Origin: Raillietiella orientalis
Lineage: Eukaryota
DNA: 64,000 nt
Assembly (NCBI GenBank): GCA_036172245.1
Contig: JAYWIR010000002.1
Coordinates: 5,704,001 to 5,768,000, forward strand
Direction: 5' to 3'
Part shown: piece by piece, positions 1 to 60,529 of the stretch
Layout: each line of letters begins with the position of its first letter
How positions within the stretch are numbered: position 1 is the stretch's first letter
Position numbers and translations under genes: made by a program
Notes under the pieces: model-generated
Databases searched by the model: none
Told to the model about the DNA's origin: nothing
Seen by the model: the letters and a program-made list of their open reading frames with translations, nothing else

Positions 1-926
1 GTTGGCACTTTCGCATTCGAGGGGGTTCGCGAAGAGGTTGCTCGCGGTCCTACTGTGAAGAGGCGCGAGGGAGCTCTCCAGGAAGAACAGCGTGGGAGCG
101 GAGCATCCGGATGCCGACTGGATCGGAAGGGGGCAGAAGGAGTTCTCGGCCCGAACTCTGGTAGCCCGGAAATGCCACTCGAGTGCAGGGTCGCACAGGG
201 GCGGAAAAGGGTGCTGCAGGGTGCAACTGCTCGGGAGAGATCTAACCAACGGACCAAACAAAGTCGTCCGGAAAGCTCGGAGCGACCCGATGCGTCCTTT
301 CGCATCGAGAAGAGCGCTGGTGATCACCCCGGAATTGAGCCTGAGGCGGAGATCGCGGCGCGCGCACGTCTCAGGACCAACAGTCCGTCTCGTCGGTCCA
401 GCCTCCTCCCGTTCTTGGACTTGGCACGTCGGTTGGCGGCAGCAATCGATGATTCCGCCAGGACCAGGCAGTTTGCTGATTCCAGCGACGGTCCTGACGG
501 TGGTGGCAGCACGAATGCAGTGCGAAGGAGGCGTTTCGAGGACTCACGTCGATCTGAAGTGGTAAGGACCAGGCAGTAGCGGGATGAAGAGAGTTGGTGC
601 GACGGGGCGTTCCTTGAAGAGCACTACCCTCAAGAAGAGGAGGAGAGAGAGGGGGACGACTCTCTGATAGCGGAAAGGCGCCTGGGGCTGCAAAAGGGAC
701 AGTGGACTCTGGTGCCAGTTAAGAAGATGCGGGTGTTTCGCACTCATCGCGTGTGTGCGCGCCTTCGGGGGTCATCATAGTCAGAAACAGACGCTTGCCC
801 CATCCCCTTCCTCTGCGCCCCAGGGGAACCTCGGCAGACAGTCGAGTCTACTGCTCGGCAGTGCACCGGAAGGGAGGATAGCCCTGGGCGGTGCGACTCG
901 TGCTGACGAGGTCTCTTGTTTTCCAG

Positions 927-3900
927 GCATCCTGACGTTCATAAACTGCTGGAGCACTCGGTGGGCGACCAGGATACAGGACTTCTTCCTGTGGGCAAAG
1001 CTGCTGGCTGTTTCCATCATTATCGTCACCGGGATCGTGCAGCTGTCGAAAGGTGGTATCCTTGATGACGACCCGCGGAGGGCGCCTGACCCCGGGAGAC
1101 CTTCCCACTCGTAGAACAGTTCCCTCGCGATTGCCGGACGTCTCGAAGGCGCCCTACATACGTGACCCTTCGGCCCGTTTCACCTCCGGGACTGGTCCTC
1201 CGGACCTTTGTTCCTCCTCCTCCCCTTTAGCAAGTTGTCAGGAGCTGCACTGCAGCGCGCCCCTTGTCAGGAGCGTTTGAGGGAGGAATCTAACCGTCTG
1301 AAGAGCTGGGACACGCGGGTGACCTCTTGCCGATGCTTCTCCGCACCTGAGGCCATTCCCAAGAGTTCCTCAAATTCTCGTGTTCGCATCTTCCCACATG
1401 GCCCTTCCATAGTTTTCCTCTTCTACCATGTTTGGTCCCCCAAATCCCACGCGGACCAAGTGCAGCATCCTTTTGCTGTGCCCGCCCTGCGCGAAGAGCA
1501 TGCATCCCCGGAGGCGACACTACCGCTTGTCAGACCTAAAGAAAATTACAGGTGCGTGTGTGTGTGGGTCTCTGAGGGATCACAGGGTCGCTTCTGACGG
1601 ACACCCGCTTGTCGCGACCGAGTGACCGCGCCTCCGTGGCCGGTTCGGCGACGACCCCGCGTTCGCAGTGCACCACGTGGCCGCTCCAGCATGACTTCAT
1701 CCGCACCCGACTCCTCTGCGATGTTCCTCCCCTCTCCCCCTTCCTCCTCCCTCATGGAGCCATCCCCACGGAACGCTCGCGTCCGCGTGCTGAGCGCACA
1801 CCGAGGGGAAAGGTCCGCCGGAGAACCGCCGCAGCGGAATCCCTCCGGTGGAACCCCCCACTGCCCGGATTTCCGCGGCGCTGCTTCTGCTGCTGCGCGG
1901 TCCTGCAAGTTTAATTTCTTTCGCAGTTGACGAACGCTGCCCTCCGTTTTGATATTTCGCAGTCGACGAACTCCGCATTCCTATCGGATTTCTTTCGCAG
2001 TGGACGAACACCGTCGGAGAATCCCGTCTCTGTTTTCCATTGCTTTTCCCAGGAGTGCCTTTCCTGATTTGATGCTTTTCCAGGTAGGGTCGAGCACTTC
2101 ACCTTCGAGAACACGGAAACCAGCATAACGAAGATCGCGCTGTCCTTCTATTCGGGGCTGTTCTCCTATTTCGGCTGGTAGGTGGTGTCCACGGCGCTTG
2201 CGCGGCATGCGCGGCCGCTTCGCGCTCTATGACGTCACGTCACCGCGCGCCTCTCGCAAGGGGCGAATGCGTCATTACTACCGATGCCGCCCCCTGGGTG
2301 GTCTCCCGTCCGCGTTCCCTGGGAGCTCGTTTCACGCGGCAGCGACGCATCGCCGCCGCTGCGCAAAACCCTCCTCTCCGCGGCCTCCGGGGGCTGCCGC
2401 GGGCAGCGGCGCTGCTTCCCGATTCTGCTCGGGTGCAGAGAGACGGGAACTCCCCCCGACGCCCGCTCCAGGAGAGAGGGGAGGGGGTCCAGTATCTCTG
2501 CGGTGGTCCTCTTCCCCCCGTGGGGCTGGACCGGGACATCTGATAGACGCTATCGCCCCTCTCCTGCTGCCGGGTCTCCTCCAGACCTCCCCCAGTCTCA
2601 CGGTTTCGCACCTCGGCGTTGTCATGCCCCTTCCGTGCTCGGCAACGCCGCATGCATCTCGGAATTCGCGCGGCTTCCCTCCTCCTGGTTTTTTTTTTGT
2701 CCTGGCGCCTTCCCGTGCCGCTCCTCCCCGTCCCTCCTCCGGCGTCCCCTACGGGCCCTCTGTCGTGCGCTCCGCGGATCGTCTCGGGGTTCCGTATCGG
2801 AGGAACAGAGGATGGTCAGCGACCCCCTCCCCGTGATCAGCTTGTCCTGGTCCACCTCTGACGCCTGGGAGCCGAAGTCCGGACCCCTCGGGTTTGTCTC
2901 CATTGCCCTGCCTACCACGCACTGTGACCAGGCTAGGTGTGGCTCATGAAGGAGGCTACCGGAAGGTCCCTCGCGACCTCCCCCCGCGGGGACGTCGCTT
3001 TCCATGCTATGCCGGCGTGCCAGCGAGGGCGGCAGCATCTCTGAGCGCGCATGCGAGCAGACCGAACGGAGGTCAAGGTCGCTTCGAAAGGTTCTGGCCG
3101 CTCGGTCTGACGGCCCCAGCTTGGGTGCCACGCAAAGGAGGGAGGAGAGGTGAGTTGGCCCAGAAGGAGTTGGCACCTGCGCATCTGCGGCCCCTCCTTT
3201 CGAGCCCCTCCTCCGCAGCGGTCAGAGCCCTATCAGAGCTCCGGGACCAGGGCAGCTTTGCCCAGTAGGGAGCCCTGGAGATCTTCCCCCTTCTCCAGGA
3301 TCTCGAGCAGGGGCGTCCAATGGAATTCTCGAGGCCACGGAAGGTTGGGAGCTAAAGAGACGGAGGGTTCGTGGAGAGAGGCAATGCCCTTCCTTTATGG
3401 CTGACCTGGCGCCCGCTGGCGAGGAAGGGCGAGCTCTGCGCCATCTCTGCCCCAGCGGGCAGTGAAAGACTCCCCCTTCCCCCTCCTCTTCACCCAGCCT
3501 TCGAGGGATGCTCGCGGACGGCTGGAGGCTCGCCTCCTCCTCCTCCTCCTCCCGAGCCGCTGACTTCAGTCGAGACGGACGCGGCCGAGGTCAGCGTGCC
3601 GTCGTCTTTCCTGAAATGTTAGGGGCATTCCGGCAACAGCGGGAGAGTCCGCATTGCGGTCTGGAAGGCGCGAAAGGCGGGGGCTGCGTACCCATCGACG
3701 CTTCCCGCCACCCCAGGAAGGGATGGCGGCAGTTCACACGGGGAGGGCTGTGGAGAGGGAGCTCCATCCCTCAGTCAGCGAGCGCTTCCCAAAGGGCCTC
3801 GATCTACAGAGGTCGACCAGGGTCACTGGGGGCGGATCCCCGCTCCCTGCCCTCACGGTTGCCTGAGGCGTCCTCTCTGCTCCTCGTGGTCTCGCCGCCG

Positions 3901-6900
3901 CAGCTTCCTGTTCATCTCCGCAGCGAAGATTCCTCCGGGTGGATGAGCCGCCTGGGGTGTCAGCCGCTGGCGGATCCCATTGCCCTCCGCATGCGCTGCC
4001 CTGTCTGCTGCGACCCCGAGTCATAAGGGATTTGGGCACTTTCCCCTTGCTGAGGGAGGGCCGGTTCTCGACCCGACGCTTCACTCCCCGAAGAGCTATG
4101 GGATATGCCCTCAGGGGCTTTGCGCAGGTCCGGTCCGACCCGCCGTGCGCGTGAACTCCGGCTCCCCTCCGGTTCCAATGCAGTCCAGTTGGGAAGAAAG
4201 AGGGAGCCTTCCTGGTGCTCCCCTCCCAGACTCTCCTCGGCATCCGCCAGATACTTTTGTCCTGGCGCGCCCGTCGGATGCCGCCGGAGGTCGCGTCCGC
4301 AGAGCCTGGGAGACTAGCCAGGAGTCGCCGCCGCGGTCTCGAGGCTGAAGGGCACGAGTCCCCGGAGAGCAAGGACTCCAGTAGGCGTTTCTGGTGGGCG
4401 TTCCGTCAGGGTCTCGTTCCACCGCGTATCGGCAGATCCACAGATCCATTTCCCGCCCGCCGAGATGCCATCTTCAGCCGGAGGGCGGGAGCCCAGCTCC
4501 CTCTCCCCGACGAAGATGCGTGGTCGTAGGGAGCATGCCCTTGAACTCGGCGGGTCAAGGGAAGGGGGTCGAAGGTGTGAGGATGCATGCGCGGTTCTGC
4601 CTTCCTCCTCCCGGGAAGCTGAGCGCCCCCGGCAGCCGCGCTGCCGTCGCTACGCGCACAGGTTTGTGGTCCCGGGGGCGCATGGGGCAGTTGGGAACAG
4701 CCCTTACCATCCTCTCCTCCTCCCAGGCACATGCTGAACTTCATCACGGGGGAGCTGAAGCATCCGGTGCGGTGAGTGGTGCGTCGACCCGCTCCCCGAA
4801 GGGGGGCTGCTGCTTTGTTTTCACAGGGACCTGCCCCGGGCCATAGGCATTTCGTGCGTCATAGTGACCATAGTCTACGTGATGACCAACGTTGCGTTCT
4901 TCACCATCCTCAGTCCAACGGAGATGCTGTCCTCCGCAGCCGTGGCAGAGGTTTGCAGCGCGCATGCCGCCAGCTCCTTCTCGAAGGCCTTTTCCTTGCC
5001 AGTCCTTCGGCAAGAAGGTGTACGGGGTGATGAGCTGGATCATCCCGGTATTCGTGGCCATGTCAACGTTCGGCACCATCAATGGGATCCTAATGACGTC
5101 CTCGAGGTAGTCGACCCGCGCTGTCGCCCCCTCATGGCAGCGGCGGATGCGCGCCTGCAGGGAGCGCACCGCCGCTGCCGTTCGAACCTCCGCGAGCGCC
5201 GTCCCGCGAGCCGCCCCAAGGCGAACCTCTTCGGCGGTAGGGGGGCCGCCCCCTCAGATGCCCACTGTTATACCGGAGGAAAGGGAGGAAAATCCCTTTT
5301 CTCGGGATTTTCGGACTCCCGGCTCCCGTAAGTCTCGCGACTCGACCCCGCGCCCTCGCCTCGGGGCGTGCTGTCCCTGTCCTGCCTCCCCCATGTTGTG
5401 CCGTGTTGCAGCGTGCAGCAGGAGCGCATCGAGAGGGAATCCCCGGGGATGCGCTGGTCGAGACAGCCACGGGTGGCTCCGGAGGAAGGCGCGGAATCAT
5501 CCCTCCCGTACCCTGTCCTGCTGAGATCCCTGGGGGGTCTCTTCGAGAGATCCCCGCGTTCGGGCCCGTCTTCCGGCTACAGTCTCCCCGCAGCGCTCCG
5601 GGCTCACTAGGAGAGCAACCCTGGGTGTTACTTGGGAGCTCGCGGAACGAGGGCCAAGTCCGGCGCGCCACTTTTCTTTTCCGGGAAGTCCACCCGGCAG
5701 TCCGTCACGAGGGGAGGCCCGCGAATGGTTGAAGGGCGTTAAGCCCAGTGGAGGTTCGTGGGGTAGGTTGCGGAGGCACTGTGCACAGTGGGCAACTGCG
5801 TGGCTGCGAGCTGCGCGCGTGACACGAAGCGCTGCTGGTTCGAATCCCGCCTGAGGAAGCCTCAAAGTCGGGAAATGAGTGCGTCGTGAGTTTTCGATCC
5901 CTTCTGCAGGATGACGCTGGTTGGCCTCGGCTGGCTTCGGGTGGGACACTGGGGGAATCCGGAAAGCCCTGGATGCCCCCCACACTGGCCTCCGGGACTA
6001 GAAGTCGACCCTTTGGAGTCCTTTCAGGAATCAAGGAGTCGCTTCCCTTCGCTTGCGAAAAGGGAGCCCCGCACCATAGGACTGGTCGATACCCCCCTAG
6101 GGGGAGTCGTCTCTCCAGAGTGTCAGAAGCGCGGTATTCCCTTCAGGGAAGCGTCCTTCAGAGAAATTGAGAAGCGACCCTTCGGGGTTCTCTTCAGAGG
6201 AGGAGAGCAGAGGAAACAGAGAGCAAATTCTTCTCGGGTTCCCTTCGGAGAAGAAAGGAGTAGAGACCCACACAAGCCAGAAGGTCTCTGCGGATAAAGT
6301 GTGGGAGAGGTGATTCCCTTCGAGGTTCAGAGTCCCTTCGAGACTCTCCCAAGCCTGAGCGGAACGGACTCCTTCCTCAAGAGCCCCTTCCTGAATTCGT
6401 AAGACATTCCCCCCGGACTGCCCCCTAATTTAAAGAGCAGCATTCCCCTGCCTCGCTGCCCCCCTGAGAAACGTAGGGGCGGGGCGGAGCGGGGCAAGAA
6501 AGTCCCCTCGAGAGACCACAACCTCGTGTACACTTCGCCTCGTTTCCTTGAGGTCATTCGTTTGCATTGCCAGAAGCAGCAGCGACCTCAAGGACTCACC
6601 GCCTCGTTTTCCGCGGAATCGCGGGAGGCGGAACTTGCCCTGAAGAAACGAACTTTCCTTGTTTGCTTCCGGCGGTCGGTCCTTCCCTGCTGGATGGCGG
6701 CCAGGAGCTACGGCCGGGTGCGTCGGTGAAGCACCGCAGGCGATCCGTCTAGCTGGAGAATAGCCGAAGACCCGAAGATGAGGTGACGACGTGGAAATCG
6801 GCAAACCCCACGATGTTCAAACAACGCCACTGTGATGCGGCGAAGACACGGAGATGATCCGATACCATGATGAGCAAGCGAAATGATCATGAGCCGACGT

Positions 6901-9715
6901 CCTGCTTTCCTGACCAATACAACGCTGCTGCTTCGTCCGAGTCGGCGCTTTGCCGTGCCTCAATTCGGCGGCCACGGATCGTGGCCGGCGCTGTCTTCTG
7001 ATGGTGTCCTGGAGGATGCCGAAGGCCATCCTGCCAGAAGATGAGCTGATCATGGTGCCATGGTGGAACGGCGCGGCTGTTGCGTTTTGGACTCAAGAAG
7101 GGGGGCGCTGTCGGCTGGTCAGAGCGCGACGTAAGGATCTTGTGGCACTCCCGGAAAAAGAGCGAGAGTCTCAGACGGAATCCAGCCGCCTTACCCTCAC
7201 GCAGTCGCAGAGAGCCAGCAGCCCCTGTCACCGACGGACGCGATACGCGAGGCTGCATGCGGTTTTCCTCCTCCCTGGGAGAGGAGGAAATTTCCAAAGG
7301 CTTGAATTGACTGCGGTAGCCTTCCTGCTTCCTTGCTGTCGGATGACCTCTGGGGAGCTCTCTGGGCTTCTGTTTTCCTGCTGGGACCGTGGGCAGCTGC
7401 AGTTGAATCCGTCCTTCCTTGGAGTCATTCCTCGAAAGAGCGCTCAGGAGACCCGCGCGTTAGGTGCTTGGCAGCTTCAGCCTTCTCTCCCCCTCTCCCT
7501 CCCCTTTTAGGCTTGCGTCTTCCGCTTAAGTCCAGCTTCTCTGCAAGAAAGCAAAACTTTTGCTCGCAGACTGCGCGTGTTCTTTAAGATGCCGTGGCTG
7601 CCCGGCGATGGACTTCTTTCAAGACTCTGCGCCCTTGCCCGCCTGGACTGCTACAGGGGCCGATTCTGTCTCCTTCCCGTCCAGGAGCACTCGTTCGTCG
7701 TTTCCAGATGGGCTCCGGCATGGCGTTCTGCGGTGCGCATGAAGCGGGGCATGCGAGGCCATTGAATTGACCTCCATGCGCGGCGGTACGAGCGTTCATG
7801 GGGCGGTGTTGGGGCTCACTGGGCCCAGTAGAGTGGAAGCCCCAGGTCCTTCTCTTCGCTAGGCGGCAGGAGGGAAGATCGGATTCCCGTGGAGGGTGCG
7901 CGCTGGCTGCGTTGCGAAGGAAACCGCCCAGCCCCCTCTCTGGAGCTGTCGCCTTCGAGTTGGAGCATTAGCGCGAGGATCCGTCAAGGTCTGCCTGCAC
8001 GTCTCGAAGGGAGTGAGGACACGATATCCGGACAGGGGGGGGCGCGGCGAAAGAATAAGGTGCATTGGGGGCAGCAGTTTGCTTGGATTTTTTTCTCTCC
8101 TGCCTCTGGGTATTCTGGGTCGCCATCCACGCGTTTTCGAATCCAGGTTTTCCAATCCGCGACCTTGGCAGGGATGAAGCAGCCGCAGCGTGTGAATGCA
8201 CTCCGGGAGGTCGGGCGGTTTCTCGAGTGCACGGAATTCCCGGAAGACGCGCTTGCGGAGGTCGCTTTGCTTGAATTCCGCCCATCTTCCCCTCCCGCTG
8301 GCCAGCGGGACGTAAACAAGGGCGCGTCGGCGGAAACAGAAATGTTCGTGAGCGCTCTTCTGGCAGCTCCAAAGAACCCGGAGTGCCGCTGACGGTGCGG
8401 AGCTGCCGGGACGTGACATGGAAGTCCTACTGCCCGATGACCCAACCCTGCTGCTTTCCCGGCATCGCGGTCCACGGAGCACTGGAACGCGTTCCTCCCA
8501 CATGCACTGGGACGGGCGACGCTCGGCACGCCGGGTTTCGGGCCGCCATTCCCACCCACTCTCCGAAGGGAAGCGAAACCCTCCCTCGCTTTCCTCTGAG
8601 CCGGAAAACAGTTCCTTTGCCGCGGATGGAAATCTTGGATGAAAATCCTGCGTTTCGTGGACTCCTCATCCCCACGCACCTTCATCCCTGCCTCCAGGAG
8701 ATTGTCCGTGAGCGCGGCGCCTCCCCTGTTGGAGCAGGGTTGAGTTCCTACGGAGCCTTCCACTTGGCTGTGGACGCAGATTTCCAAAGACGGGCAAATC
8801 GCAACGTTGGCATGCTGACCCCGATACCAGCAACGCCCCCATAAGAACTGGCACGCGTTGACAAATGGAATCTTGGGATGAGGGTTGCAGACCTTTCTCC
8901 GGGACTTTGGGCGCTTTCGAGCTCTCGCGCGACGCAACGCAGGTCGTCCCCTCGAAACTCCGAAAGTCGGCCTTCGGGAGAAACCTGGAAGTTCTGCTGC
9001 TCCTCGAGGAGGCTTGAAGGTGCATCTTCTTCCTGTGCCCCTGGAGAGCACGAGGGCGGCAGGGGAGGCGGCAATGGCCGCAGAGGAAAAGAAGGGGAGT
9101 GTCGCGAAATGCCGTCCGCGACCTCGGCAGGGAAGAGGCAGCCTCAGCGTGTGGAAGTCCTCGCATAGCCTTCCTCGCTGATGGACCCGCTGCTTTCAGA
9201 CTGTTTTTTGCCGGCGCCCTCGAGAACCACATGCCGGAGCTGTTCGCGATGGTACAGGCGAAGCAGTCGACCCCGGTGCCTGCAATCATACTGACGGTGA
9301 GTAGCTCCCGCTGAACGCGAGCACGGCTGCCGCTCAGACGCTCATCTCCTTCGTGTACCTCTCGACGCCGGACGTGTTCAAACTCATCAACTACCTCGGC
9401 TTCTCCATCTGGACCAGCCTGGGAGCTGGCGTGCTGTGCTTGCCTGTCCTCAGGAGAACCCACCCGGAGATGCCCAGACCCATCAAGATCAGCCTGTTCT
9501 TTCCCGCCGCCTACTTGGTAGCCACGGTCTTCCTCATCGTCTTTCCGGCGATCGACGATCCAGTTGAAGCCGGTGAGCTGCCCTGGAGACGGGATCCGAG
9601 CCTACCTTCAGCCTTTTTCCAGGGAAAGGGATAATCCCCATCGTGAGTGGGGTGCCGGTATATTTCATGTTCGTCTCGTGGAGCAAGAAGCCCAAGTTCT
9701 TCGCCAGCGCGGTGG
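927..9715 (+). CDS. L-type amino-acid transporter light chain (SLC7/LAT, APC superfamily), partial spliced CDS; 5' exons lie before the window or were not found, last exon not identified
   Basis: GT-AG-bounded exons join in phase: 927-1052 ([25 protein letters not shown]), 2084-2177 ([15 protein letters not shown]), 4727-4771 ([15 protein letters not shown]), 4827-4950 ([24 protein letters not shown]), 5003-5106 ([24 protein letters not shown]), 9200-9296 ([18 protein letters not shown]), 9338-9572 (LINYLGF..MPRPIK), 9623-9715 (SGVPVYF..KKPK). These motifs are characteristic of LAT1/y+LAT-type transporters. Confidence 0.93.
1919..2009 (+). repeat. Three spaced copies of a 17-bp motif TTTCGCAGTNGACGAAC
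   Basis: Copies at 1919-1935, 1955-1971 and 1993-2009 (period 36 and 38 bp) with dissimilar spacers. Confidence 0.8.
5790..6330 (+). mobile_element. tRNA-headed SINE-like repeat, copy 1 (in SLC7 intron)
   Basis: B-box GGTTCGAATCC at 5837-5847; body blocks GAAGTCGACC, GAATCAAGGAG, CCCTTCGGGGTTCTCTTCAGAG and GGTTCCCTTCGGAGAAGAAA are shared, exactly or near-exactly, with 44495-45155. Confidence 0.7.
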
Positions 9716-19678: not shown

Positions 19679-22600
19679 TCAATGTGTTCTGTCACTCTTC
19701 TCATTTAGTTTCAAATTACTGAATAGAATGTCCAATACTTGATTGGCAGCAAGTGGGATTTTGGTACCTAAAGCATAATGCAAAAATAATGCAATAATTT
19801 ATTATTATTTTTTTTGCAATTGCTAACCAGGTCCAAATATGCAAGCTGCACCATAATCATATAGGAGCTGATAATCCTGAGGTGGTATAACACCACCACA
19901 CACAACCAAAATATCAGGGCGATTCCTTTCTTTCAATTCTTTGACCAAAGCTGGTACAAGGGTTTTGTGCCCTGCAGCTAATGTGGATACCCCAACTACA
20001 TGAACATCAGCATCTATAGCCTGCTGGGCAACTTCTTGTGGAGTCTATACCAAAACATAGCAAACAGATCTGCTCAACTGACACATACTTGAAACAGTGG
20101 ACCAACATCTACATCAAATCCAAGATCAGCAAAACCTGTTGCAATAACCTTTGCTCCTCTGTCATGACCATCTTGACCCATTTTGCACACGAGAATTCTA
20201 GGTCGGCGACCTTCTAAATTTAGAAATTCTTCTGTCCTTTTAATAACAACATCCAGTTCTTTCTGGTTATCATACTGTGCTTTATAGGCTCCAGATACCA
20301 ATCTGTCTGATGCTATGTGGCGACCAAACACCTTTACAGATGATCACATTTTATTTTTTTTTTTAACGTTTTTTTAAGAATCTACCTTTTCCATTGCTTG
20401 TGTTATTTCACCCAATGTGCAACGAGCTCTTGCACATTCTACTGCACATGCCAGAAGATTACCTACACCTGTACGGGCACATTCTGTCAGGGCTTCCAAA
20501 GTCTCAGTACATCTTTTTGCATCCCTAGAACTTTTCATCTGATACACATTAAAATTCATATACTTTCATTCGGTATACCTTTTGGATTTTTGAAATTTGC
20601 CCATCCCTGACTCGTGTGTTATCGATAGTTAGAACTTCTATTGGGTCTTCTTTTTCGAGACGGTACTTATTGACACCGACAATCACTTCTGTAAACCAAA
20701 ATTTTGGTAAATGTTAATTAAAAACGAGAGCTCTGCGTGGAGAGAGAGAAAAAAAAGGGGCATGAAAGACAGAAAGAGAAGTTCTTGCTCTATGACTCCA
20801 ATGTTTACATCAGTTAGCTCTTACAGAAATCAATATTTTAAAACCATGGGATATATTATTTAGTAATATTTTAGTAATTAGTAATATTTTGTCATCTCTT
20901 AAAAGATGTATTCAGCCTTTAAGAGATAGAGGCATAACTGTGGAGACATAGGTATGCACCCACAGTTATGTTTTTTGACAATAGTACTGACAAATTTATC
21001 CGGAAAGAAATGTCATCACTGGACTGCTCTGTATTAGATCAATGGCTACCACAATAATTCCTTTATTCTAAGTAAGGTAGCACGCACATTTTGTTTCTGC
21101 AAATGGGAAAGGGCGTTGAATGAGATCAACAAAATCGTGAAGTACATTTATCTTTATTCAGCCTTTAAATATTTTGTTATCCAAAAGGCAGAATACAGCC
21201 TTAAGGGATAAGAAAATATTACTAAAAAGATGGACTAAATGCAATACTAACGGCAGCAGACCATATAACTTTGTTCTTAAGAAAATTTTCATATTTGTTG
21301 ATATTATTAATTTCTACACAGAAACAAGAAAGCACTCGTATGGAAACCATTAAAAGAAAATGAAAAAAAGGCATTTAAAACGAAACATAATTTTGTGCAC
21401 GAGATCTCATTTCATATTCACTTATTTGAATATACTCTGAATTCCTGAATTCCTCTTGATGTTCCATGCTACTACAGAGTGATACAATTAGACTGAAGAC
21501 AAAAAACCTGGAAATAGCTACATCATCATGAATCTCTTTTTGCTTTATAACGCTACACCTGGATTGGATCTTTTTTCTTTTCCGCTTTCAAAATACGGAA
21601 AATTTAGTAATGGTTTATTTAAATGTTCATGATGTATCAATCAACATTTTATTCAAAGCCACTAATAAATCATGTTTATGTTACAGCATTCAATTATTAT
21701 GGCATAAGACATGAAACAACGAAATGACTTGTACTTAAAGTACATTTACCTTTATTGCTATCAATGAGGGCTTGTCGTTGGGCAGCACATTCTTCTATTT
21801 TAAGCTTTGGCCAGCCTGATGCAACTGCTTTGGCCATCCCACCCATTTCTTCAACCTGTTTCATAACTTTTTTAGCCTCATTGGAAATTTCATTTGTTAA
21901 GGATTCCATTGCATAAGATCCAGACCAAGGATCGATAATCTAAAAACATAAGACACTCACTTCTCCATATTCAGGCATATTTTGGAATAAATGAATTTAA
22001 TCACATTCATTGTCTAAGGAAATAGGAAACTGGGTATGATTGTCTGTAATGATTTGAGTTATGGATCAACTTGCGATGGTAAGTTTAATTTTAAAAGCAC
22101 ATACAGTCATCTTCTATGTACAAAACCTAGTTCACATTCACCTCTCTCAAACATGCATACATCAGAAAACCCTAGGTTCTTAAAAACAAAATAAACCAAG
22201 ACAATTATGATGATCTCACATTTGTTTAAAATATACGTGCATTCACATCTATCTATCTTTCATACGACCAACTCATACTTTGCATATTCTGAAACCTCTA
22301 GTTTGCAAGGTTAGAAGAGAACCAAAGAGCTTTTTCATTCTTGACTGCCAAGGAGCAGGAGTGGTATTTAAAACATCAAACTGTACTCAACTGCATTTAA
22401 AACTTCGTGACTCTATAATCATCTTTACACTATCCACCTGTAAAGTGTATAACTAGTATGAAGATGTATTAAGAAAGGCCAGGTCCTGCACTTCAGTACT
22501 TGACTATAAATAAACCACAAACTGTCGGAAGACAGAACCCGAAAATTTTAAATATTGGAAAGAAAATGTCAGAATTAGGGTCATTAAAAATTTCCTTATG

Positions 22601-24241
22601 TGCTACAGTAGTATTAGTACTACATGGTTAATGATTCAATGAATAATCAAAATCAAATGCCACAATGCATACAAAGCTAAACATACATGAGGAATTTGAG
22701 TTTCTTCTTGAAGAATAATCTGTGTATTTCTAGCAATTCTGGCAGAAAATTTTGATGGTAATGCTAATGCTTCATCAAATGAATTGGTATGTAAAGACTG
22801 TGTTCCTCCAAATATAGCTGCCATAGCTTCTACTGTAGTGCGAATAATGTTGTTATAAGGATCCTGAGGGCAAAAGCATAAATATTACCATAAAGATAGA
22901 AATATACCTGCTCAGTAAGAGACCATCCTGAGGTCTGACAGTGAGTGCGCAGCATTAACGATCTTGGATCCTTTGGGTTAAACTTTTCCTGAATCAGTTG
23001 AGCCCACATACGGCGAGCTGCACGCATTTTTGCAATCTCCTAATCAAAAATACATGTACTGAATTCATAGCCTACTTACCATATAAAATTTCATTCCAAT
23101 GCCCCAAAAAAATGATAACCTCGGAGCAAACTCATCAATGGTGAGTCCTGCATTCAAACCAGTACGACAGTATTCCAGTCCATCAGAAAGTGTAAATGCC
23201 ATTTCCAAAACAGCATTCGCACCTGCTTCTTGCATGTGGTATCCAGATATGCTAATAGAATTGAATTTAGGCATGTTCTGCCACCTAATAAATAAATAAA
23301 CATGCAGAAAGTATCCACCTACTTTGGAAACAAAAGAAAAGATGTCCCCAATTATACGCATAGATGGTTCTGGAGGATAAATGTATGTATTTCTAACCAT
23401 GAATTCTTTAAGAATATCGTTCTGAATGGTGCCTGACAGTTGATCCATATTTACTCCCTTCAGCAATCATATCATCGGCGAGATGTGATGCAATACGTAC
23501 CTGCTCTTCACCAGCCACGATAAAGAAACTCAGAACAGGGATGACAGCTCCATTCATAGTCATGGAAACGGAAATCTTTTCCAGAGGGATGCCATCAAAA
23601 AGCATCTTCATGTCTTCAACAGTATCAATAGCAACTCCAGCCATACCTGATTGAAATCAGATTTGGCTGAAAAACACTTACTGCTTACCAACATCCCCAA
23701 ACACTCGCGGGTTGTCAGAGTCATAACTAGACAAGAAACAGGTTCCAAACTGTAAATTCGACTGACTTACCCACAGTGTGTGGCTAAATCAAAAGCCACA
23801 CTCAATCCTTGCTGACCTGACTTCAAATTTTCTTTGTAAAAGCGATTACTTTCTTCTACAGTACTGAATCCTGCATACTGACGAATAGTCCAAGGCCGAT
23901 AAGAGTACATGGTTGCATATGGGCCTCGTGTGTATGGGAATTTTCCAGGGAGTTCATCTTCTAAACTTGAAGACAACTGTAGACTAAAGTTGTAAAGAAA
24001 GAATGTACTTTTCCGTGTCTTTGCGTGTGTAAAGTGGCTTGTATACAATTCCTTCTGCAGTTCTGTACAACAAAGTTTCATAAGGGTCTTTTCCTTTAAG
24101 TTGCTTGCGTGCCAGCTTTACCCACTCCTCATCCAACTGGACTGTAGCAGCTTCTTCAGAAAGCTGCCTAACAGCAAAATATTTCCATCTCAAATCAAGT
24201 AGCCAATGTTTGGAGAATGCCCTTCCAAGAAAGAATAACAT
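19679..24241 (-). CDS. MMUT: Methylmalonyl-CoA mutase, mitochondrial (adenosylcobalamin-dependent), 14 exons
   Basis: Exons (-): 24241-24009, 23965-23771, 23726-23689, 23646-23501, 23457-23323, 23277-23080, 23039-22908, 22863-22687, 21939-21750, 20688-20579, 20538-20386, 20331-20089, 20044-19828, 19767-19679 (TGA). Motifs [70 protein letters not shown] and the B12-binding [10 protein letters not shown] (DxHxxG); the basic/hydrophobic N-terminus resembles a transit peptide. Confidence 0.98.
20878..21225. mobile_element. MITE-like foldback element in MUT intron 9
   Basis: Imperfect ~43-bp terminal inverted repeats: TTAGTAATATTTTGTCATCTCTTAAAAGATGTATTCAGCCTTT (20878-20920) versus the reverse complement of 21183-21225, TTAGTAATATTTTCTTATCCCTTAAGGCTGTATTCTGCCTTTT; no coding capacity. 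Confidence 0.6.
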
Positions 24242-24261
24242 TATCCACTCGTGTTAATAAC

Positions 24262-24278
24262 CTAAGATGAAAGAATAA
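24262..24278 (-). promoter_or_regulatory. 3' splice acceptor 20 nt upstream of the MUT ATG with no local donor
   Basis: Minus strand TTATTCTTTCATCTTAG|GTTATTAACACGAGTGGATAATG; pyrimidine tract plus TAG matches the acceptors inside these genes. Confidence 0.65.
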
Positions 24279-24295
24279 CTGATGGTAAATCGTTA

Positions 24296-24306
24296 TTTAT
24301 TTTATT
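24296..24306 (-). terminator. Polyadenylation signal(s) of CAPN7 (overlapping AATAAAATAAA)
   Basis: Minus strand reads TAA(stop)-28 nt-AATAAAATAAA followed by a T-rich tract. Confidence 0.7.
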
Positions 24307-24334
24307 GAGATTCCCCCCCTTGAGAACCAGATGC

Positions 24335-27300
24335 TTAAAGGTTTTGTTGGATTTTGAAAGGGGAGGAGCATGATACGGTTAGTAAGAAGGGGCCTTCCAT
24401 CCCTGGATGAAATGTGGATGGAATGAGTTGGTAACATCCTGCAGGAAGTTGGTTTACTTCTAAAACAACAAATCCTGGTCTGCAAAACACAAAATAAAGA
24501 ATAGCTTTTTGTATGCATGGAATGTACCTATAGGGGCCAGAAGTTGCGATTGGATACGACCTATCTGCATTCTGGGAATACAGATGCAAACCTACACTGA
24601 ACTCCTTTGGTCCTCGCAATTCAAAAAGTAGCTGGCAACATTGAGGAGGTGAATCAACAATGAGAGTATAAGATGGGTTATTCCAAAATGTATTTGGATG
24701 ACTTGGACATCCTCCTGCAGAAATACCTTTCCAGCATCCATCATGAATCTGCTATCAGGTAACAAAATGTCTATAATACAACTTGGCACCTGCTGATGAT
24801 AACTGAAGTGGCTTGCAACTGGACTCAATTCAAAAGGCACTGAGCTATAGACGCGGATAGAAAAGTATATGGTGCGTGACTTCTCATGCTGAGAAACAAC
24901 AAGTGTGTAACAATCATTGGCAGAGACCAATTTGCACAAATAATGAGGACTGTTGATCCGGTAGGCCTCCAACAAAGGGGGAGGTTCATCTGAATGCTTT
25001 GATACAAAGTGAGTACAAATGACTGTTACCAACATGGATAATAAACACGTTTGCCTTGGTTCTTGTATACCAACAGAGTGATATATTCTCGATTTTCCCT
25101 GAAATCCTCAATATCAGTAATGTGTCTTGTAAGCAGGATCCAAACAGCTGAAGATGTCTTAGCTTTAACATTCAAAATGTACTGAGGATTCTGACTGATA
25201 TTGTACACATCTCTGGCAGGACCTACTCCAGCTTTCCAACATCTGAGGGAGGCAATAATACACAAGAAAGAAGCACGAGCAAGATTTACCGATGGCTTAC
25301 AAATGTGTGTTGAAATAACTTAGGATCCCAATTGATGTAAAAAACATCAAAAAAGTGGCACAAACTATGATAGTCAATCCAGAATACCCCATTGTCAAAT
25401 ATATGTGCACTTTTGGGACTGTAGTTCAACTGCTGCTGTAATTCTGCAGTCCAGCTTTTCTCATCCAACTCAGAGTAGCGGCCTTTCCATCGAAGATGAG
25501 ACCAAGGGTTCTTCAATTGTAGCAATCTGATATTCTTAATAGGGAAACTTCACAATCATAAGTTTTCTAAGAATGCACCTTAATTTCCTGGATATCCAAT
25601 ACAGCATAAGCATGAGACTCAACAAGACCAGCTCTCTGAGTCACCTCCTCACTAAGTGGGCCTGTAGCAACAGTCAGCAAGAGATGGCCTTGATGAAATC
25701 GCTCGTGAAGTAGGCGAAATGTTTTCTCGGCATCAAAATCAGCATCCTTAATTGAAATGCGTTCCGGAATCCATCCAGTAAGCGCATGTAAATCGATATT
25801 CTAATGAAATATTCGTGAATGCTTTAATCAATAGTATGTAACACATACACTATTAGATCCAGGAAAATCATAGCCCCCCATAACCTTCATATATGCTTTC
25901 TCCAATAAGGAAGGCCAAAGTTCTCCTCTTAATGATGAAAATGAGCACAGTGCTTCTCCGAATTTATTAACAGGGAAGAAATCATCAATGATGACTTTAC
26001 GCTTAACACCATTTATGTGTAGCTGTATCATATATTTGCCACAAGGATTATAAATTGGTTGCCCATGTTTATTCTGTGGGAAAATTTTGCTGGATAATAA
26101 TTTCGAGGAGAAACGCTTTTCATGTAAAGCACTAACTGCCATTGAAGCCACAAATGAGCAATCAGAAACTAAGGTTTGTCTTATAGCAAATGGATCCATG
26201 AAAACAATGACTTTGGGGTCTCTAGCCAATTCTTCTGCACGCATCCAGTGGTGAAAATGTTGGAGTTGTTTAGGTGACAATTTCAGCTTCCCATGAGGAT
26301 CATCATACGGTAATGGGTATGCAAATCGCTCCAAAAGATCCACTTTTAAGAAGGGTACATATGAAACACCATTAATTAAAGATGTATTCTTAAGAACTTC
26401 GAGTTCATCACAAGTGTATCCTGAACGACCACTTAAATGCAACTTGTTTTTAGCATCTCCATCTAAAACATAAACATGAGAAGGCTGAAAGTGAACACTT
26501 TTACCGAGTACCTATGGTACGTTTGGGTGAACTGACAATGGCTTTGAGTTTTTCGGCTTGTTGAACTGCCTGCTCTGCTAGTCTACGTAATTTGTTGCTC
26601 AATTCTTCATCTTTTATGCTTTTTCTCTTCACAATGATAATTCGTCAGTATAATTCCTCCCAAATTTACATACAAAGGCTTTGGATGATATGAGATCACA
26701 AGTGTATATAATACAATTCTGATTCTCATTAAAATAAACATTCCAAAAATTTCTAAAGATTGAATGGCATAAAAAACACTATTGATAACTAAGAATTATA
26801 AAATCTGGTACAGCCCTAGTTTCTCAAGGTCCTGCTACTGATTCACCGATGCATTAAAAATCATTGGGTACGTACATTTTTTTTTAAGATTTATACAACA
26901 CTACAAACTTTTGCTGAATTGATATTCCTGTTTGTGAACTCTCACATGCATGAACTAAACAAAAACGTTGGAACAGAAGAACAATAAATGAACACTTTAG
27001 TTCTTAATCACGTTTTGTATTATTTTTCTAATCAAAAACTTACTCTACAATGCATATTGTAGCTTGTGATAATACATTTTACCCATCACGATTATTAGAC
27101 CTATTCAGATAACAAACGCACAAACTTTTTTTCCGTAAATAATAAAAATGTCTCCATATAATAAAAAAAAGCATCATTCAAAACATATTGACAATTAATT
27201 TATATTAAATGTGCAATTGAGTAACTATGCAAAGTTAGAGAATTGCATGTTTAATAGCATGGCATGTTATATCACATTTCAACTATAGAATAACAGTAGA

Positions 27301-28863
27301 TATTGACTAAACTGGCTGATTTCTCCATCACTCAAGCCAGTTTCTCTTTTAGATCATTCATGTTTGTAATCTGATATTCCTTTTTTAGAATGCTAATTTT
27401 CTTCAGTAACAAAGTGTCCCATGTTCTAAAAAAAAGTTCCTGCATCTCTTCAAAACTTCTTAAATGTGTCAAAATTTCAATACATGTGTTTATACCTTTA
27501 CAACTTAACACAAGATAAGAGAATCAAATGAAAAATGAAATTAAAGATGGAAAACATAATGGCAACTTTAATGCTTTTTCGTTTTTTTAATCACAACGAA
27601 ATTATGATTGGATACATTGCAAAATCTCGGCAATTTTTCAACTTGAAGTGATTTTAAATAGGAGATTGTTTTAATGACTTACCAACTGCAAACATAATTC
27701 TGCTGCTCCTGAGTATAGCTTTACAGCTTCCTCCATGTGACCTTTCTCATCTTCATCCATTGCTTGGCTAAACAGGAAATATGCTCGTTTAGTTTCTTGA
27801 CTGCAGACATTTGTATGAATATTCCCATCAAAAAATTTTTTTTGTTCTAAAAAACATTTAAATGTAAAATCATGCTGGTGATTAATGATAAACACAATGC
27901 CTGAAAAATAAAAATTGAGGCAATCTTTACATTTTATCAACATTAGATTTGTATACTACAAGACATCTAGTGACATCTCTGTTTCCGCTTAAGTGAAAAG
28001 AAAGTTACTGATTACTGTATTTCTACACAGCAAGGGATTTGATGATCTTATTTAGAAATATGATCAATGTCAAACATAAAATCATTCTTCAAATTACAAG
28101 TGGTCTGATTGAGGATACATGCTTAAGAAACAAACATTTTGTTAATACAATGTGCTAAAGACAGCAAATACAATCAAAATAAATCAGAAACTGGTACTGA
28201 ACAAATCCTTATGTAGGATGTTCAGGGTATTCCATGATGATCACTTGCTTTGAAGGAAACATTAAATAAATAAATTAATAGTCAGAAATACATCTTCAAC
28301 ATACATATACTTCCCCCCTGGTTTGCAAGTGTAGATTAATGTACACATCTAAATTAAGATTTGTGAAAATATCCTTAGATTTCTGCTACAGGAATTCTTG
28401 AATTGTGAAAGTCACACATAGTAGTTATAGGAAATTTCTAAAGACTCATTTATAGAGAATATGTGATATCTGCAATTCAACATTAGAATTCGGATTTTGG
28501 GGAGAAAAATTTGCAATTTTCATAAAAAATCAAAGTTTTTACATAAAAAGTAAGGATAAAAGAAGAGCTAATATGAATCAAGCTTAAAAAACAAAATTGA
28601 TGAATACAGGATAAATGAGCTATGTAATGCAATAAATTCTTACTTGAATGTTTAAGGTCTGCAGCTCGATTTGCATATTCTTTCTGCTTCTCTAATAAAG
28701 AGTCATTTTCATATCCCATTGTCATGAGATCCCCAATACATTCTGCAGCAAGTTCATAATAATAAATAGCTGCATCCAAGTTATCTTTCTCAAAGTTAAT
28801 GGCTCGGTTAGCTGCTTCAGCAACCAACTGCAACAATTCTTCCACTGTTTTCTTTTCATCCAT
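24335..28863 (-). CDS. CAPN7: Calpain-7 (PalB-type: tandem MIT domains, CysPc protease core, C2-like domains), 11 exons
   Basis: Exons (-): 28863-28644, microexon 27987-27957 (or -27960), 27800-27683, 26626-26512, 26462-25849, 25800-25579, 25534-25290, 25242-25034, 24989-24790, 24748-24528, 24479-24335 (TAA). MIT-like AANRAINFEK..AAIYYY..EYANRA and AMDEDEKG..AVKLY; catalytic triad in QTLVSDCSF (Cys), SHAYAV (His), LKNPW (Asn); also ELWPSLLEKAYMKVMGGYDFPGSNS. Confidence 0.96.
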
Positions 28864-28892
28864 TCAATAAGGCATAAATAAATAGCAAGTGC

Positions 28893-28915
28893 CTAAACTA
28901 AAAACAGAAAAGAAA
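28893..28915 (-). promoter_or_regulatory. 3' splice acceptor 29 nt upstream of the CAPN7 ATG
   Basis: Minus strand TTTCTTTTCTGTTTTTAGTTTAG|GCACTTGC...TGAATG. Confidence 0.65.
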
Positions 28916-31900
28916 TCAAATGCCATTCCACCAATTGAATAAAGGATTTCTTATTTTACCAATAACAGGTTACGATCTTGTTTTATATTTGATAGCATCC
29001 CATTTTAGGTTGCAACAAAATATACACTGATTAGCTTTGCAAGCAGCCAGTAAAGCCACAATACATTGTGCCCCCAAATGAGAGAACATCAATTATTCTG
29101 CATAGTAGTGTCATTTGCTAAAGCCACAATGCCTTAACCCACCCATTTTCATAATCAATCATTCTAGCATCAATAATCCTTCTCTACTAAACCCCACAAT
29201 CCCACATTCAGAATCACTAATTAGTCCAACTAATATGAATACACAAAACAAGGCGAAAGACGATATATGATACCAAAAACTATGATTCTTATCAAACCAC
29301 CTTGGCAGATTAACTTATTAATGTTATCATACACATTACCACCACCACTTCATGCAAAACAATAACAACTAAATACTCAATTCTTATCCTATATCAGCCC
29401 TCTACAATGATCGATCCATGAAAAGTGATGATTCTTTACTACTTTTTACGTGATATTTTAAGTGAAAAGTTTCTAGGAAGCTCTACAACCATACGGATCA
29501 ATGGAAATGTTTTGATAAAAACACAATTAAATTATTTTAGCAGAAATGAGGAATAATAATGAATATTTACAATACGCGAATCCAGCAATGCTTTCTGTCA
29601 TGTTCATGTTCGATTTTTAGAAATGCAGTACACCTATGTAAAGAAAACATTTCCTATGCATACACCTATGCATGGAAAACTATTCTTCGCCTTTGTGCTC
29701 AACGTATGAACAAAATATGGTAAACGAGTTTATCTCTTTGCAATGTATGATGCCCGTGCTCATGAGGGGCACTCACAAAACGCCGTTTAGCACTATCAGT
29801 ACTTACATTCACGCACATTTCAATTTAATGATAGATAATGATAAGAATACAATGAATACTACTACGGAGCAAAGAGATTTCACTTTTTCTGGGCTGAGTT
29901 TTTCACGAGAACCGAGGCACTTACGGTTTCAGACCGTTACAAAAATGGATATGGATGGAAGCATTGGGTATCTTAACCCGAAAGATGAGAATTCAAAAAG
30001 AAAAGAATGCTTACGTTGCTGAGTTTGGGACATTTTATCGCAACTACGTCGATCACGTTTGATATACAAGCTTCGCAAAACAAAATCAAGAACATCAAGG
30101 GCATTTGGGTCTTCTGCGAGCTTTTGGTACCTTGCCTAAGGCACAGGAGAACCAGTACTCACTTGCCATGAAAATTCTGTACCCAAACCCATACTTCTTT
30201 CGTACCGAGAAAACGTGCACATTTATAAAAGAAAATACGATCAAAGAAAAGGTGGAAAACGAATCTCATACTCGATTTTAATTCAAAAACTCAAATAAGA
30301 GTAATTATGCGGGAGCACTTCATAGCTTTTTGGCTAATCTTGATAATCAGAAACCATCCCGAGGGACGAATATATTCTTTTTATTCAAAAATTGTGCAAT
30401 ACCAAAACTAAGACCTGTATCTTGGAATGTGTCAGAAAAAACAAAACAAAACATATGTGGTTTGTAAGGCCAGATAAACGTGATTCACATGTTAGAATAG
30501 CTTTAATAAATCCTATTCTTGTTACTAACTCGAAAATGGCAAGTAAGCAAAACGAAGAATGGAACACTAATATTTTGGCAAAATCCTTCTGGTAAGTTTT
30601 CAGATCATCCAATAGTTTCACCAAATAGGGATCTGCTAAAGTACTGCCTTTACCAGACAGTCCTACGACCTCAAAAGTGCGACCAATCGCTGAATTTTGC
30701 CTCTTCACTCCATAAAAGTTCCTGATCTCTTTTAGGCCTCTTCAAAGTCTTGAACCGAATTGCCATTCAGCGATTCGATTTTGGACAAGCAGCTAATGAT
30801 GATGCACACAGGTGATCAACTCATAGCTCTTTTTAAAATGGGGAGAGGAGTTTTACCTGCATTGTAGAGGGTGTGGTTTGGCTTTTTGTACTTAAGGATT
30901 TTGTTTACCAGCAACAGAAGCAACGAGAAATTGAAATAACGCAAAAAGCGTATCTGTTACAGTAAGATGACTGATTTAATAGACGGCATATTGTCTGCAA
31001 TTGGTGCATAAATATTTATTAATAAAAGTCTAATGGTCTAAGGACTTAGTAATAACAAACTATACCGAAACGAAAGTCGGACTGGAATCTCAGTAATCAT
31101 GCAGGATTGTAGATGAATGACTTTTACTCAATATGGAGAGGAAACACGCAAACCAAGAATGAGCAGTTAAGAGGGTAAAGGATAAAATAAAAAAAGCCTT
31201 TTGTTAGTGCCATAAGGGATTTGAATGACTTCAGGTAGCACTGAATACTCCAAGTGCCATTGGAATTTCTGACGTATTCAGTGTCGTTATAAGGTATAAG
31301 AAAAATATGATAATTTCCTGATGAAAGAGAAGGTTGGTTAGGGCATGGAAGTGAATGAAAATTCTTAGATAAAGCAAGAGAAAAAAAAGAGAACACATAA
31401 AGTAAAAATAGACGAATAAAATACGGAAAACAAAAAAGTAAGCACTTTTGAGCTTTAAATATATTATGAAACATTTTTTAAAAGGTTGCTTTCAGTTCTC
31501 ACGAAGCAACGCGATCCTTTCAAAAGTGATTAAACATGTCAACCTCGGAGAAAACGAAGGTAGCAAGAAATTCAAGGCGTTCTCGACGGAACTCTCGGAT
31601 ACATGCTCTCAAAATGAGTGGGTCCCCCTGCTTGATTGAGTTTTTTTCAAGATCATCAAGTACTGCATCTTACTAGATGACCAGGTTCCAAACGAAGGGG
31701 AAGCACAACCTATCAATGCCTTTGAGACACCTTTGACATCGATTACTCAAGAAAACAGCAGCTTGTGGTTGCTGTTTTCTTGAGTTGGAAACAGATTTGT
31801 TCCTCCAAACTGTTTTACTGGACTCACCGGAAAAGATAATAATCTTCTCCTGGTCTACCATGCTATATGGAAATTCAGTTGTCCATCTGAGCAAATCACT

Positions 31901-34259: not shown

Positions 34260-35590
34260 ATAAAACTTTATTTAGCATTTGGATTAATACAAAAATTGTT
34301 GCTGGAATGGCTCTGGAGAATCCTTTGCGAAGGTTGTTTCCTACGTGTTCTTCACGGTTCCTCGGTGCTCTCTTCCGGGGTGAGAGCATTGTCCAGATCA
34401 TCTGGTGGGGCTGCATTTTTCCTTCTTACACGTGATGCATAGATGGTTCTTGAAAAGCAGATGCAGATGGCAACCATCCGCTGCCGTATCCTTATCAGCT
34501 TCTTTTTCGGAATTCCTGTGTATTGTAGAACGTTGTCGTTTTCAGGATCTCATGCTCCAAGTGGGCCGACAAGGATCGCCTGCACTTTGGTTATTTTCCC
34601 AGTGTTTCCGAGTTGCATGGCGACATCATGGTATTTGGCTTCCTTTATTTTCCTAAATGTGGTGAACGCCTCCTTTCCGTTTTCAAATGGGCAGGAGATG
34701 TCCAGCACACCTATTCGATCGCTTTTTTTCCAAAACCAGGTCTGGTTTTAGGGTGGAGGTGGTTCCTGGCACTCTGCGATTACTTGATACCAGAGTCCAC
34801 TTGGCTTCATCCATTGCGGCCCTCTTGATAATTTCCAGGATAGCATCATGGCGCAGCATCGTCAGAGGCGCGTGCTTCTTACATCTGTTGAGCACATGTG
34901 ATAAAGTCTCGTCCTCGGTTCCGCAACGCCGACATATCCTTCCATAAACCTTCTTCGTTGGTCCAGCATTTAGGGGCAAAAGGTTCAGCCCTGCCTCATG
35001 GATGAACTTGTAGTCTTGGTATCTTAGGAGGATTCCGTTTGTATGGAAGAAGCTTGAAGAGTGATGCATGCCCACACATTGCATGGCCTTCCCTTGACTA
35101 ACGTGGTTTTCAATGAGGGATTGCCATGCGTGTTCTCGCTGCAATGCTCTTACGCCGGAGGCGAGCCGTCTTCTAGCACTGCTGGTGAAGAGTATTTCGT
35201 CCACTGTGATTCTGGGTTCTCCTTGCCGAAACTCCCAGCGGGCTTTCATTCTTCTAGAGGCCTTCCTTCCTTTCAACCAGAGGCTCTCAATTTCCCATCC
35301 GGGCTTTGCGATCTTGTTCATCATGAATTCCACGAGATTATCATCTGTCGGGGCTTCTTGGATCCGTGTTTGGACGATTTCATCTAGGGTTATCTTTGAA
35401 AGTTTACTTACTGCTTTGTCTGCCGACGTAAGCAGCTTGAAGCAGCTGTCCACGATGAAGGTATCGGACTCTTGAGCTAGCTTCATTAGTCCTAGGCAGC
35501 CTTTCGTTCTCTTTCCGTACAGATACTCGTTTGCTGCCCAGGATGGTAGGTGAAGGGCCTTCTTCAACTTCTTCCTTCCTTCCTTACTTT
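34260..35590 (-). mobile_element. 5'-truncated, degenerate non-LTR retrotransposon with restriction-like endonuclease (NeSL/Utopia-like, R2 group)
   Basis: ORF 34683-35567: KKALHLP..YLYG...LGL, LNLLPLN, CCHC knuckle CRRCGTEDETLSHVLNRC, RHD, LKPDLVL. After a frameshift in an A-run (~34724-34730) it continues GVLDISCPFEN..KEAKY..ILVGPLGA*DPEND, with a premature TGA at the conserved W. The 3' UTR ends in AATAAA near 34268-34273. Confidence 0.85.
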
Positions 35591-35724
35591 CCTGCCTTAA
35601 AATTTTTCTGGTACGTGGAAGCAGCTTTTTTCAACCCTCTGCATGAAATTCCGCCTCCTGCGAGTTCAGCATCACTGCAGTTTTCCACTCCTGACTTTCC
35701 CCCTCGAATCGTTGAACCACCTTT

Positions 35725-60199: not shown

Positions 60200-60529
60200 G
60201 TGAGGAGGGGAGGAGTGGTCCCGCCGCGTTGGAGAGTTCTGAGACCTGGACCCGGAGGGTCGCGCGTTGTGGGCAACGGATCGAGAGACCGGAAAACCTG
60301 ATGAGCTCTCTGCAGGGAGTTCACTCAGAGGAGAGCTCGCTGCTGGGGTCATGGGTCTCTCGCATTCTGCATAGCACGGCCATGAAGGGGCGCGCAGACA
60401 AAGGTAGAGACGGCAGCAGAGGTTGCCTCTGGGAGGAGGTAGCCGCAACACTTTGAACCAAGAACGCTCTTGAGAGATCGCCGGGGTCGTTCCTGGTCGC
60501 GCATGCTATGTGACATCGCTACTGGGAAC

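Follow-up and report, generated by a model that had tools for sequence, protein, structure and literature searches.

A tight CAPN7-MUT gene pair in Raillietiella orientalis as a candidate operon resolved by spliced-leader trans-splicing

Operons that are resolved by the splicing of a leader are known from nematodes, tunicates and flatworms. Here we describe a candidate for this arrangement in an arthropod genome: the genes for calpain-7 (CAPN7) and methylmalonyl-CoA mutase (MUT) of Raillietiella orientalis, which follow one another closely in a stretch of 64,000 nucleotides (nt) from contig JAYWIR010000002.1 (positions 5,704,001 to 5,768,000; hereafter the window, whose own numbering is used for coordinates). 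Judged from sequence, there is about an even chance that the two genes are a co-transcribed pair resolved by spliced-leader (SL) trans-splicing. Chaetognath operons have also been described (PMC12460157), and SL trans-splicing is documented in copepods (PMC4664967) and amphipods (PMC5111886), which belong to the same phylum as the organism studied here. Wenzel et al. 2021 give operons as unreported in copepods and amphipods although both groups trans-splice (PMC7986045), and no title or abstract opening in the literature searched, a set outside which most subscription journals fall, reports an arthropod operon.

Both genes are encoded on the minus strand, as are all features of the pair given below. 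CAPN7 (24335..28863; 10 exons, 785 amino acids) ends with a TAA at 24337-24335 and MUT (19679..24241; 14 exons, 751 amino acids) begins with an ATG at 24241, leaving a stop-to-start gap of 93 nt (24242..24334) that contains no ATG ahead of the MUT start. The junction is single-copy in the genome assembly (G000, 210 Mb, 491 contigs). Both ends of the gap were checked against homologues. The CAPN7 model aligns end to end with tick calpain-7 (BLASTP, 49% identity), Pfam finds Calpain_III in its last exons, and its stop lies at most 2 residues from the homologue ends in all eight printed homologues. The MUT model, which includes a B12-binding match, is 74-76% identical to the 12 best of 120 homologues; its start is offset by a median of -4 residues relative to 65 full-length homologues, and its predicted N-terminal leader is of normal length.

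Splice sites were scored with matrices trained on 22 window introns and 164 predicted introns from other loci. Within the gap, two overlapping AATAAA hexamers (24296..24306), the likely CAPN7 polyadenylation (poly(A)) signal, start at 24306 and 24301, the first of them 28 nt past the stop codon and the pair 45 and 40 nt ahead of the MUT acceptor junction. They are followed by an initiator-like TCAGTT (24277..24282), by a U-rich tract ending in AG (24262..24278, AG at 24263-24262) that forms a candidate unpaired splice acceptor with a score of 3.7, and by a 20-nt MUT leader (24242..24261). The preliminary description of this stretch, made by reading the sequence, had placed both genes on the minus strand 93 bp apart and had given the order as TAA, 28 nt, poly(A) signal, acceptor AG, 20-nt untranslated region (UTR) and ATG; all of its coordinates were reproduced. 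Its statement that the gap holds no convincing donor also stood, as the one GT placed at a distance that splicing could use has a score of 1.5, lower than any of the 22 true donors of the window (2.7-6.8). The same is true of its exclusion of a fusion protein: an in-frame TAA is located at 24256-24254, so a CAPN7-MUT fusion following a splice at 24262 is ruled out. More distal donor-like sites were found at 24457 (24451..24457, score 3.3, in the last CAPN7 exon) and at 29806 (6.0) and 30162 (5.3), the latter two within a local CpG peak (29750..30250) that is the likely promoter region of the unit. A strong acceptor (28898..28917, score 6.9) lies 34 nt ahead of the CAPN7 ATG and would be the end of either a 5′ UTR intron or an outron. 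An Rfam scan of the window returned no match at gathering score, and a metagenome scan with a 24-nt MUT stretch returned 0 matches. A search for RNA records matching 22600-30400 likewise gave none, a result with no bearing on expression.

The layout shares several features with the SL1-type operons of Caenorhabditis elegans, in which unrelated genes lie on one strand, a canonical AATAAA stands just ahead of the downstream acceptor, and 3′-end formation and splicing would compete (PMC1488885). It differs from them in belonging to an arthropod genome, in that its trans-splicing is a proposal, and in that a short spacer may remain between the hexamers and the junction. SL operons of Ciona and Oikopleura likewise consist of same-strand pairs less than about 100 nt apart, and a short single leader as in these animals would suit the 16-nt candidate described below (PMC1488885, PMC7986045). 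AATAAA is missing from 16 of 18 such gaps in Ciona (PMC1488885), and a poly(A) hexamer of the forms searched is missing from 4 of the 7 tight gaps found here. Unlike the Ciona operons, whose junctions were proved by full-length complementary DNAs, CAPN7-MUT does have AATAAA and the candidate leader gene is single-copy. With C. elegans SL2-type operons the pair shares a stop-to-start distance of about 100 nt and a U-rich tract before the acceptor, but those operons have about 100 nt between the 3′ end and the acceptor (PMC1488885), whereas the predicted distance here, for a cleavage site placed from hexamers 40-45 nt before the junction, is about 10-30 nt. By analogy, CAPN7-MUT would resemble the low-spacer operons of Ciona and the C. 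elegans SL1-type rather than SL2 operons, and no second leader type is indicated.

The case for CAPN7-MUT rests on the recurrence of this layout elsewhere in the genome. Stretches of 10 kb were taken around 42 housekeeping loci located with three Pfam families; a gene finder, which over- or under-called genes, was used solely to place neighbours, followed by a Pfam check. Two further tight same-strand pairs were obtained without selection for an acceptor, NUBPL-QTRT1 (69 nt) and EB1-PSMB2 (143 nt, measured to the first conserved codon), a number that is a lower bound because neighbour detection was incomplete. NUBPL, QTRT1 and PSMB2 were confirmed by Pfam and EB1 was labelled by reading its translation. 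Four more pairs, each with one partner identified by Pfam and a provisional label for the other, were preselected for an acceptor: UTP23-NAXD (42 nt), WASHC5 and its neighbour (52 nt), REXO4-CNBP (77 nt) and VHL-RUVBL1 (84 nt). In all seven pairs an acceptor scoring 3.7-6.8 lies within 30 nt of the first codon, compared with 7 of 69 control windows of 30 nt taken behind 23 predicted stop codons, and the best donor in the gap at least 36 nt upstream is absent (three pairs) or scores 0.3-3.2 (four pairs). Gaps of 42-69 nt must also hold a 3′ end, leaving almost no room for a promoter. Tight pairs that join unrelated housekeeping genes form a genome-wide class, of which CAPN7-MUT is one member, and a functional link between protease and mutase is therefore not indicated; the idea that this pair is a singular oddity did not survive the finding of the same layout at six more.

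Limits on this comparison count against the operon interpretation. Four of the six other pairs were picked for a visible acceptor and are hence selected. The clean unselected evidence consists of one pair, NUBPL-QTRT1 (head to tail, L079:9040-9110), in which the acceptor stands 26 nt ahead of the ATG in a gap without a poly(A) hexamer; its score of 4.5 is reached by 4 of the 69 controls. EB1-PSMB2 is not a clean test, because its acceptor coincides with the first conserved codon and a leader that lacks AUG cannot provide a start. This single PSMB2 gene (L077:4410-4560, contig C50) begins at its acceptor without an ATG, while 46 of 47 homologues have exactly one residue ahead of the first conserved codon. 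The 4.5 kb upstream within L077 yielded no ATG/GT exon with a good donor (best score 2.9), nor, by eye, did a further 7 kb. Its start might be supplied by an 8-residue extension via a weak donor (1.7), by a base missed in the assembly beside the donor at 4469, or by splicing in frame from the final donor of EB1 (4300), which would give an EB1-PSMB2 fusion.

Under the proposed mechanism, one precursor carrying CAPN7 and MUT would be transcribed from a promoter near 30000, and a short spliced leader would be trans-spliced onto the AG at 24262 to give a capped MUT messenger RNA (mRNA) with a 20-nt leader before its ATG. The CAPN7 mRNA would be cleaved and polyadenylated about 10-30 nt past the AATAAA pair, within about 10-30 nt of the acceptor. 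Cleavage about 10-30 nt before the AG would remove or shorten the tract required for splicing. Because cleavage and splicing would use the same U-rich tract, each precursor probably yields either CAPN7 or MUT mRNA, and an outcome of one or the other product was argued by Satou et al. for operons without intercistronic DNA (PMC1488885).

Taken singly, the signals at the CAPN7-MUT junction are hardly more than chance, a further point against the operon interpretation. The MUT acceptor is the weakest among the seven pairs, and its score of 3.7, compared with 2.7-7.8 for the 22 window acceptors (themselves part of the training set), is reached not only in the seven control windows mentioned above but also in 40% of 495 upstream windows of 80 nt. 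Moreover, 3′-end formation requires a U-rich tract 20-40 nt after AATAAA. The tract at 24262..24278 may thus double as the downstream element of the CAPN7 poly(A) site, which reduces its weight as an acceptor. The preliminary description, in treating the signals of this one junction as telling and the tract as an acceptor alone, had overrated the former and overlooked the second role. Its inventory of the gap had likewise passed over TCAGTT at 24282-24277, which we take to fit the arthropod initiator consensus. Similar motifs stand behind 6 of 23 control stops and in 1 of the 7 junctions (CAPN7-MUT only), and TCAGTT was dropped as a positive sign of a promoter, since it is at chance level in control flanks.

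These observations bear on the possibility that MUT has a compact promoter of its own in the 3′ end of CAPN7. Transcription would then start either at TCAGTT (about 24280), giving an unspliced leader of 39 nt, or within the last CAPN7 exons, in which case a short first exon would be spliced from the usable donor at 24457, and the acceptor-like tract would be mainly the CAPN7 poly(A) downstream element. A near-chance acceptor is what this explanation predicts, an initiator-like motif and a donor are in place, and the shortness of the gap is not in itself telling: in at least 11 cases a convergent neighbour comes within about 500 nt of an anchor gene end, so short 3′ flanks are general in the genome. 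We nonetheless regard a separate promoter as unlikely. The motif frequencies just given argue against TCAGTT, and the acceptor beside the start in all seven pairs would be left unexplained. CpG counts are 10 and 11 per 250 nt at 29750-30250 but 2-4 per 250 nt between 24000 and 25000, which suggests that the promoter lies upstream of CAPN7 rather than at the junction, while several clear promoters are CpG-rich (31 per 250 nt upstream of EB1).

The CpG comparison was made against 33 genes for which no closely preceding neighbour is known (29 of 44 anchor loci and four neighbours). Their starts were set by eye and some may be wrong, and 15 anchors were omitted because the start was not placeable, no start lay near the match, or, for PSMB2, the gene was a downstream one. 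The test separates poorly, which again weakens the operon interpretation: over the 1.5 kb ahead of the gene, 6 of the 33 first genes, like MUT, never exceed 6 CpG per 250 nt, and at two of the seven junctions 13 CpG fall within 250 nt of the start. Three observations favour transcription of both genes from the CAPN7 promoter: the recurrence of the layout, the missing CpG peak at the junction and a candidate SL RNA gene described below.

The same 33 genes indicate how often leaders are spliced. In 18 of them an acceptor scoring at least 4.5 lies within 80 nt before the ATG; the share among upstream background windows is 26% (binomial p 0.0004), and among antisense windows 4 of 33. Splicing of 5′ leaders is thus frequent in this genome, as expected both from 5′ UTR introns and from trans-spliced outrons. 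A non-coding exon near 30162 (or 29806), cis-spliced either to 28898 or to the AG at 24262, would account for the unpaired acceptors and the missing junction promoter equally well as trans-splicing, and the donor-like sites within the CpG peak could serve it. Adjacent same-strand genes relying on one promoter are known in an arthropod: in Drosophila, 130 genes have a promoter and non-coding 5′ exons in common, and its shared-exon and dicistronic loci, which need no trans-splicing, provide the main rivals here (PMC4528330). A shared leader exon has, in our judgement, a fairly low probability. In a jump of 5.5-5.9 kb across CAPN7, its splice would pass over ten exons, a poly(A) signal and an acceptor stronger than that of MUT (6.9 versus 3.7), though introns measure 38-60 nt in 18 of the 22 in CAPN7 and MUT. 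The arrangement would also need to arise at many unrelated pairs, and for EB1-PSMB2 no suitable exon with a good donor was seen in the 4.5 kb and further 7 kb upstream. The earlier proposal that MUT is made from the CAPN7 promoter is accordingly favoured by the six further pairs, the CpG profile and the SL candidate, and of its two versions a spliced leader is judged more probable than a shared leader exon.

Both genes could also be carried on a stable dicistronic mRNA, produced by read-through past the CAPN7 poly(A) signal and left unspliced at 24262, from which MUT would be translated by re-initiation or internal entry. Dicistronic pairs annotated in Drosophila number 159 (PMC4528330), and the absence of an ATG before the MUT start and of a poly(A) hexamer from 4 of the 7 gaps would agree with such a message. 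The double AATAAA, however, suggests efficient formation of the CAPN7 3′ end, and the recurrent acceptors are left unexplained. Re-initiation after a 785-codon frame is poor. We therefore consider a dicistronic message very improbable.

Returning to trans-splicing, a candidate SL RNA gene was found on the minus strand at G000:C1:1070180-1070323 (L183:781-923), with a promoter core, leader, donor, Sm site and 3′ box. Three U5 loci and several U1 loci share the core CA(C/A)TAC, 55-59 nt before the RNA start, and a CAAAG-type box follows the small nuclear RNA (snRNA) copies. At L183 this core stands 55 nt ahead of CCAAGTGTCTGTAAAG, a 16-nt leader starting with CCAAG, which is followed by GT (an AG/GT donor). 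A canonical Sm site lies 41 nt past the donor, and a box like that of the U1 and U2 copies 18 nt further. L183 is the only locus present in both the list of matches to core, Sm site and box (19 loci) and that to donor, Sm site and box (33 loci), and none of 18 other loci with core, CCAAG and donor, picked from 100 of 210 matches, had both an Sm-like site and a box. The number of five-element matches expected by chance was estimated at 0.004 from the counts for core, CCAAG and donor and for donor, Sm site and box, although the patterns were tuned on L183 and an honest figure is perhaps 0.05-0.1. Among six copepod leader primers (PMC4664967 Table 1), five contain CCAAG and five end in AAG; of four amphipod leaders (PMC5111886), one contains CCAAG.

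Other properties of the locus argue in the opposite direction. A match to four of the five elements is expected, by estimate, about once by chance. L183 is single-copy, whereas copepod SL genes are tandem or linked to 5S (PMC4664967), and 20 near matches to the leader yielded no second gene and no retrocopy. Its fold was no better than that of shuffled sequences (z -0.02 to -0.38). It lies inside an apparent 4-kb intron of the gene upstream of UBE4B, and its donor may be the ordinary donor of that long intron. Nine snRNA and 5S loci contained no donor and Sm unit, and Rfam recognised only U1 and 5S in them; the pattern searches gave no multicopy SL-like family among the matches listed (100 of 210 and 100 of 106). 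At L183 itself Rfam reported nothing below E 1.8. A metagenome scan with the 16-nt leader gave 115 matches, and none of the 80 listed lay within 30 nt of the contig's matching 5′ end; the matches were read as chance. We put the likelihood that L183 is an SL RNA gene at about one in three, and the wider proposal, that many housekeeping genes are in SL-resolved operons and receive from L183 a leader of 14-16 nt sharing CCAAG, is more tentative and probably wrong in at least some part.

Each search for a leader gene was compared with a reversed-pattern control. Core, donor and Sm site gave 26 matches versus 46 in the control; core, CCAAG and donor gave 210 versus 144; core, Sm site and box gave 19 versus 4; and donor, Sm site and box gave 33 versus 16. 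An amphipod-type leader pattern gave 1 versus 8, and further leader-gene patterns gave 37 versus 64, 86 versus 165, 28 versus 21 and 106 versus 190. Three matches were considered as SL genes and rejected: C96:57590, which has donor, Sm site and box, is U4; C6:5447180, of which C89 carries a repeat, looks like an ordinary intron of 63 nt; and C19:890098, with core, CCAAG, donor and Sm-like site, reads as a coding exon and lacks the box.

The survey of snRNA and 5S copies (L014-L032, L149-L180) found 22-46 scored copies each of U1, U2, U4 and U5. Several copies of U1 and U5 have retrotransposon-like frames behind them. Among the top U2 copies most are missing the 5′ end, and inverted pairs 1.3-1.7 kb apart are frequent among those of 5S. 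Near L183, the small gene ahead of UBE4B, which has the same orientation, seems to stop some 300 nt short of the UBE4B start (L212-L213, minus; about G000:C1:1068700-1069000), and its long intron holds, in antisense, what is presumably a fragment resembling histone H2B.

Close relatives were absent from the protein collection searched, and by its matches the animal is an arthropod, probably a crustacean. Best CAPN7 matches are ticks (65-66%), barring one partial flatworm record that comes first by E-value; the best named MUT matches are springtails, a tick and a spider; and the best PSMB2 match is a barnacle (64%). In a CAPN7 tree made by a quick method with 36 rows, the window protein stands on a long branch in no supported group, which also counts against the interpretation preferred here.

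CAPN7 and MUT sit in an AT-rich stretch between GC-rich ones, and most of the fetched housekeeping loci are likewise in AT-rich stretches. On the plus strand of the window, 850-9700 holds scattered exons of what we take, from their translations, to be an amino-acid transporter, and 51270-60300 those of a presumed peptide-receptor G-protein-coupled receptor. These two regions are GC-rich with long introns, unlike the compact AT-rich CAPN7-MUT stretch. A 315-amino-acid open frame on the minus strand (34683-35630) resembles, by our reading, the C-terminal part of a protein of a retrotransposon without long terminal repeats. Elsewhere in the genome, a gene for a CCT subunit (L138:4253-5950) is a single 566-codon frame whereas its paralogues have many tiny introns. 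GTATCCTTT donors were found in two SmE paralogues and an Lsm8-like gene; their presence in the first introns of L103, L104 and L098 suggests the U12 type.

With many tight pairs and a named leader candidate, the question is directly testable. Should a shared exon or a separate promoter account for CAPN7-MUT, the pair is ordinary. If SL trans-splicing does resolve it, this would be the first arthropod case of SL-resolved operons, as far as the titles and abstract openings of the literature searched reach. It would also mean that animal operons arose independently once more, in what seems to be a genome with CpG-poor housekeeping gene bodies, and the gene annotation of the lineage would change.

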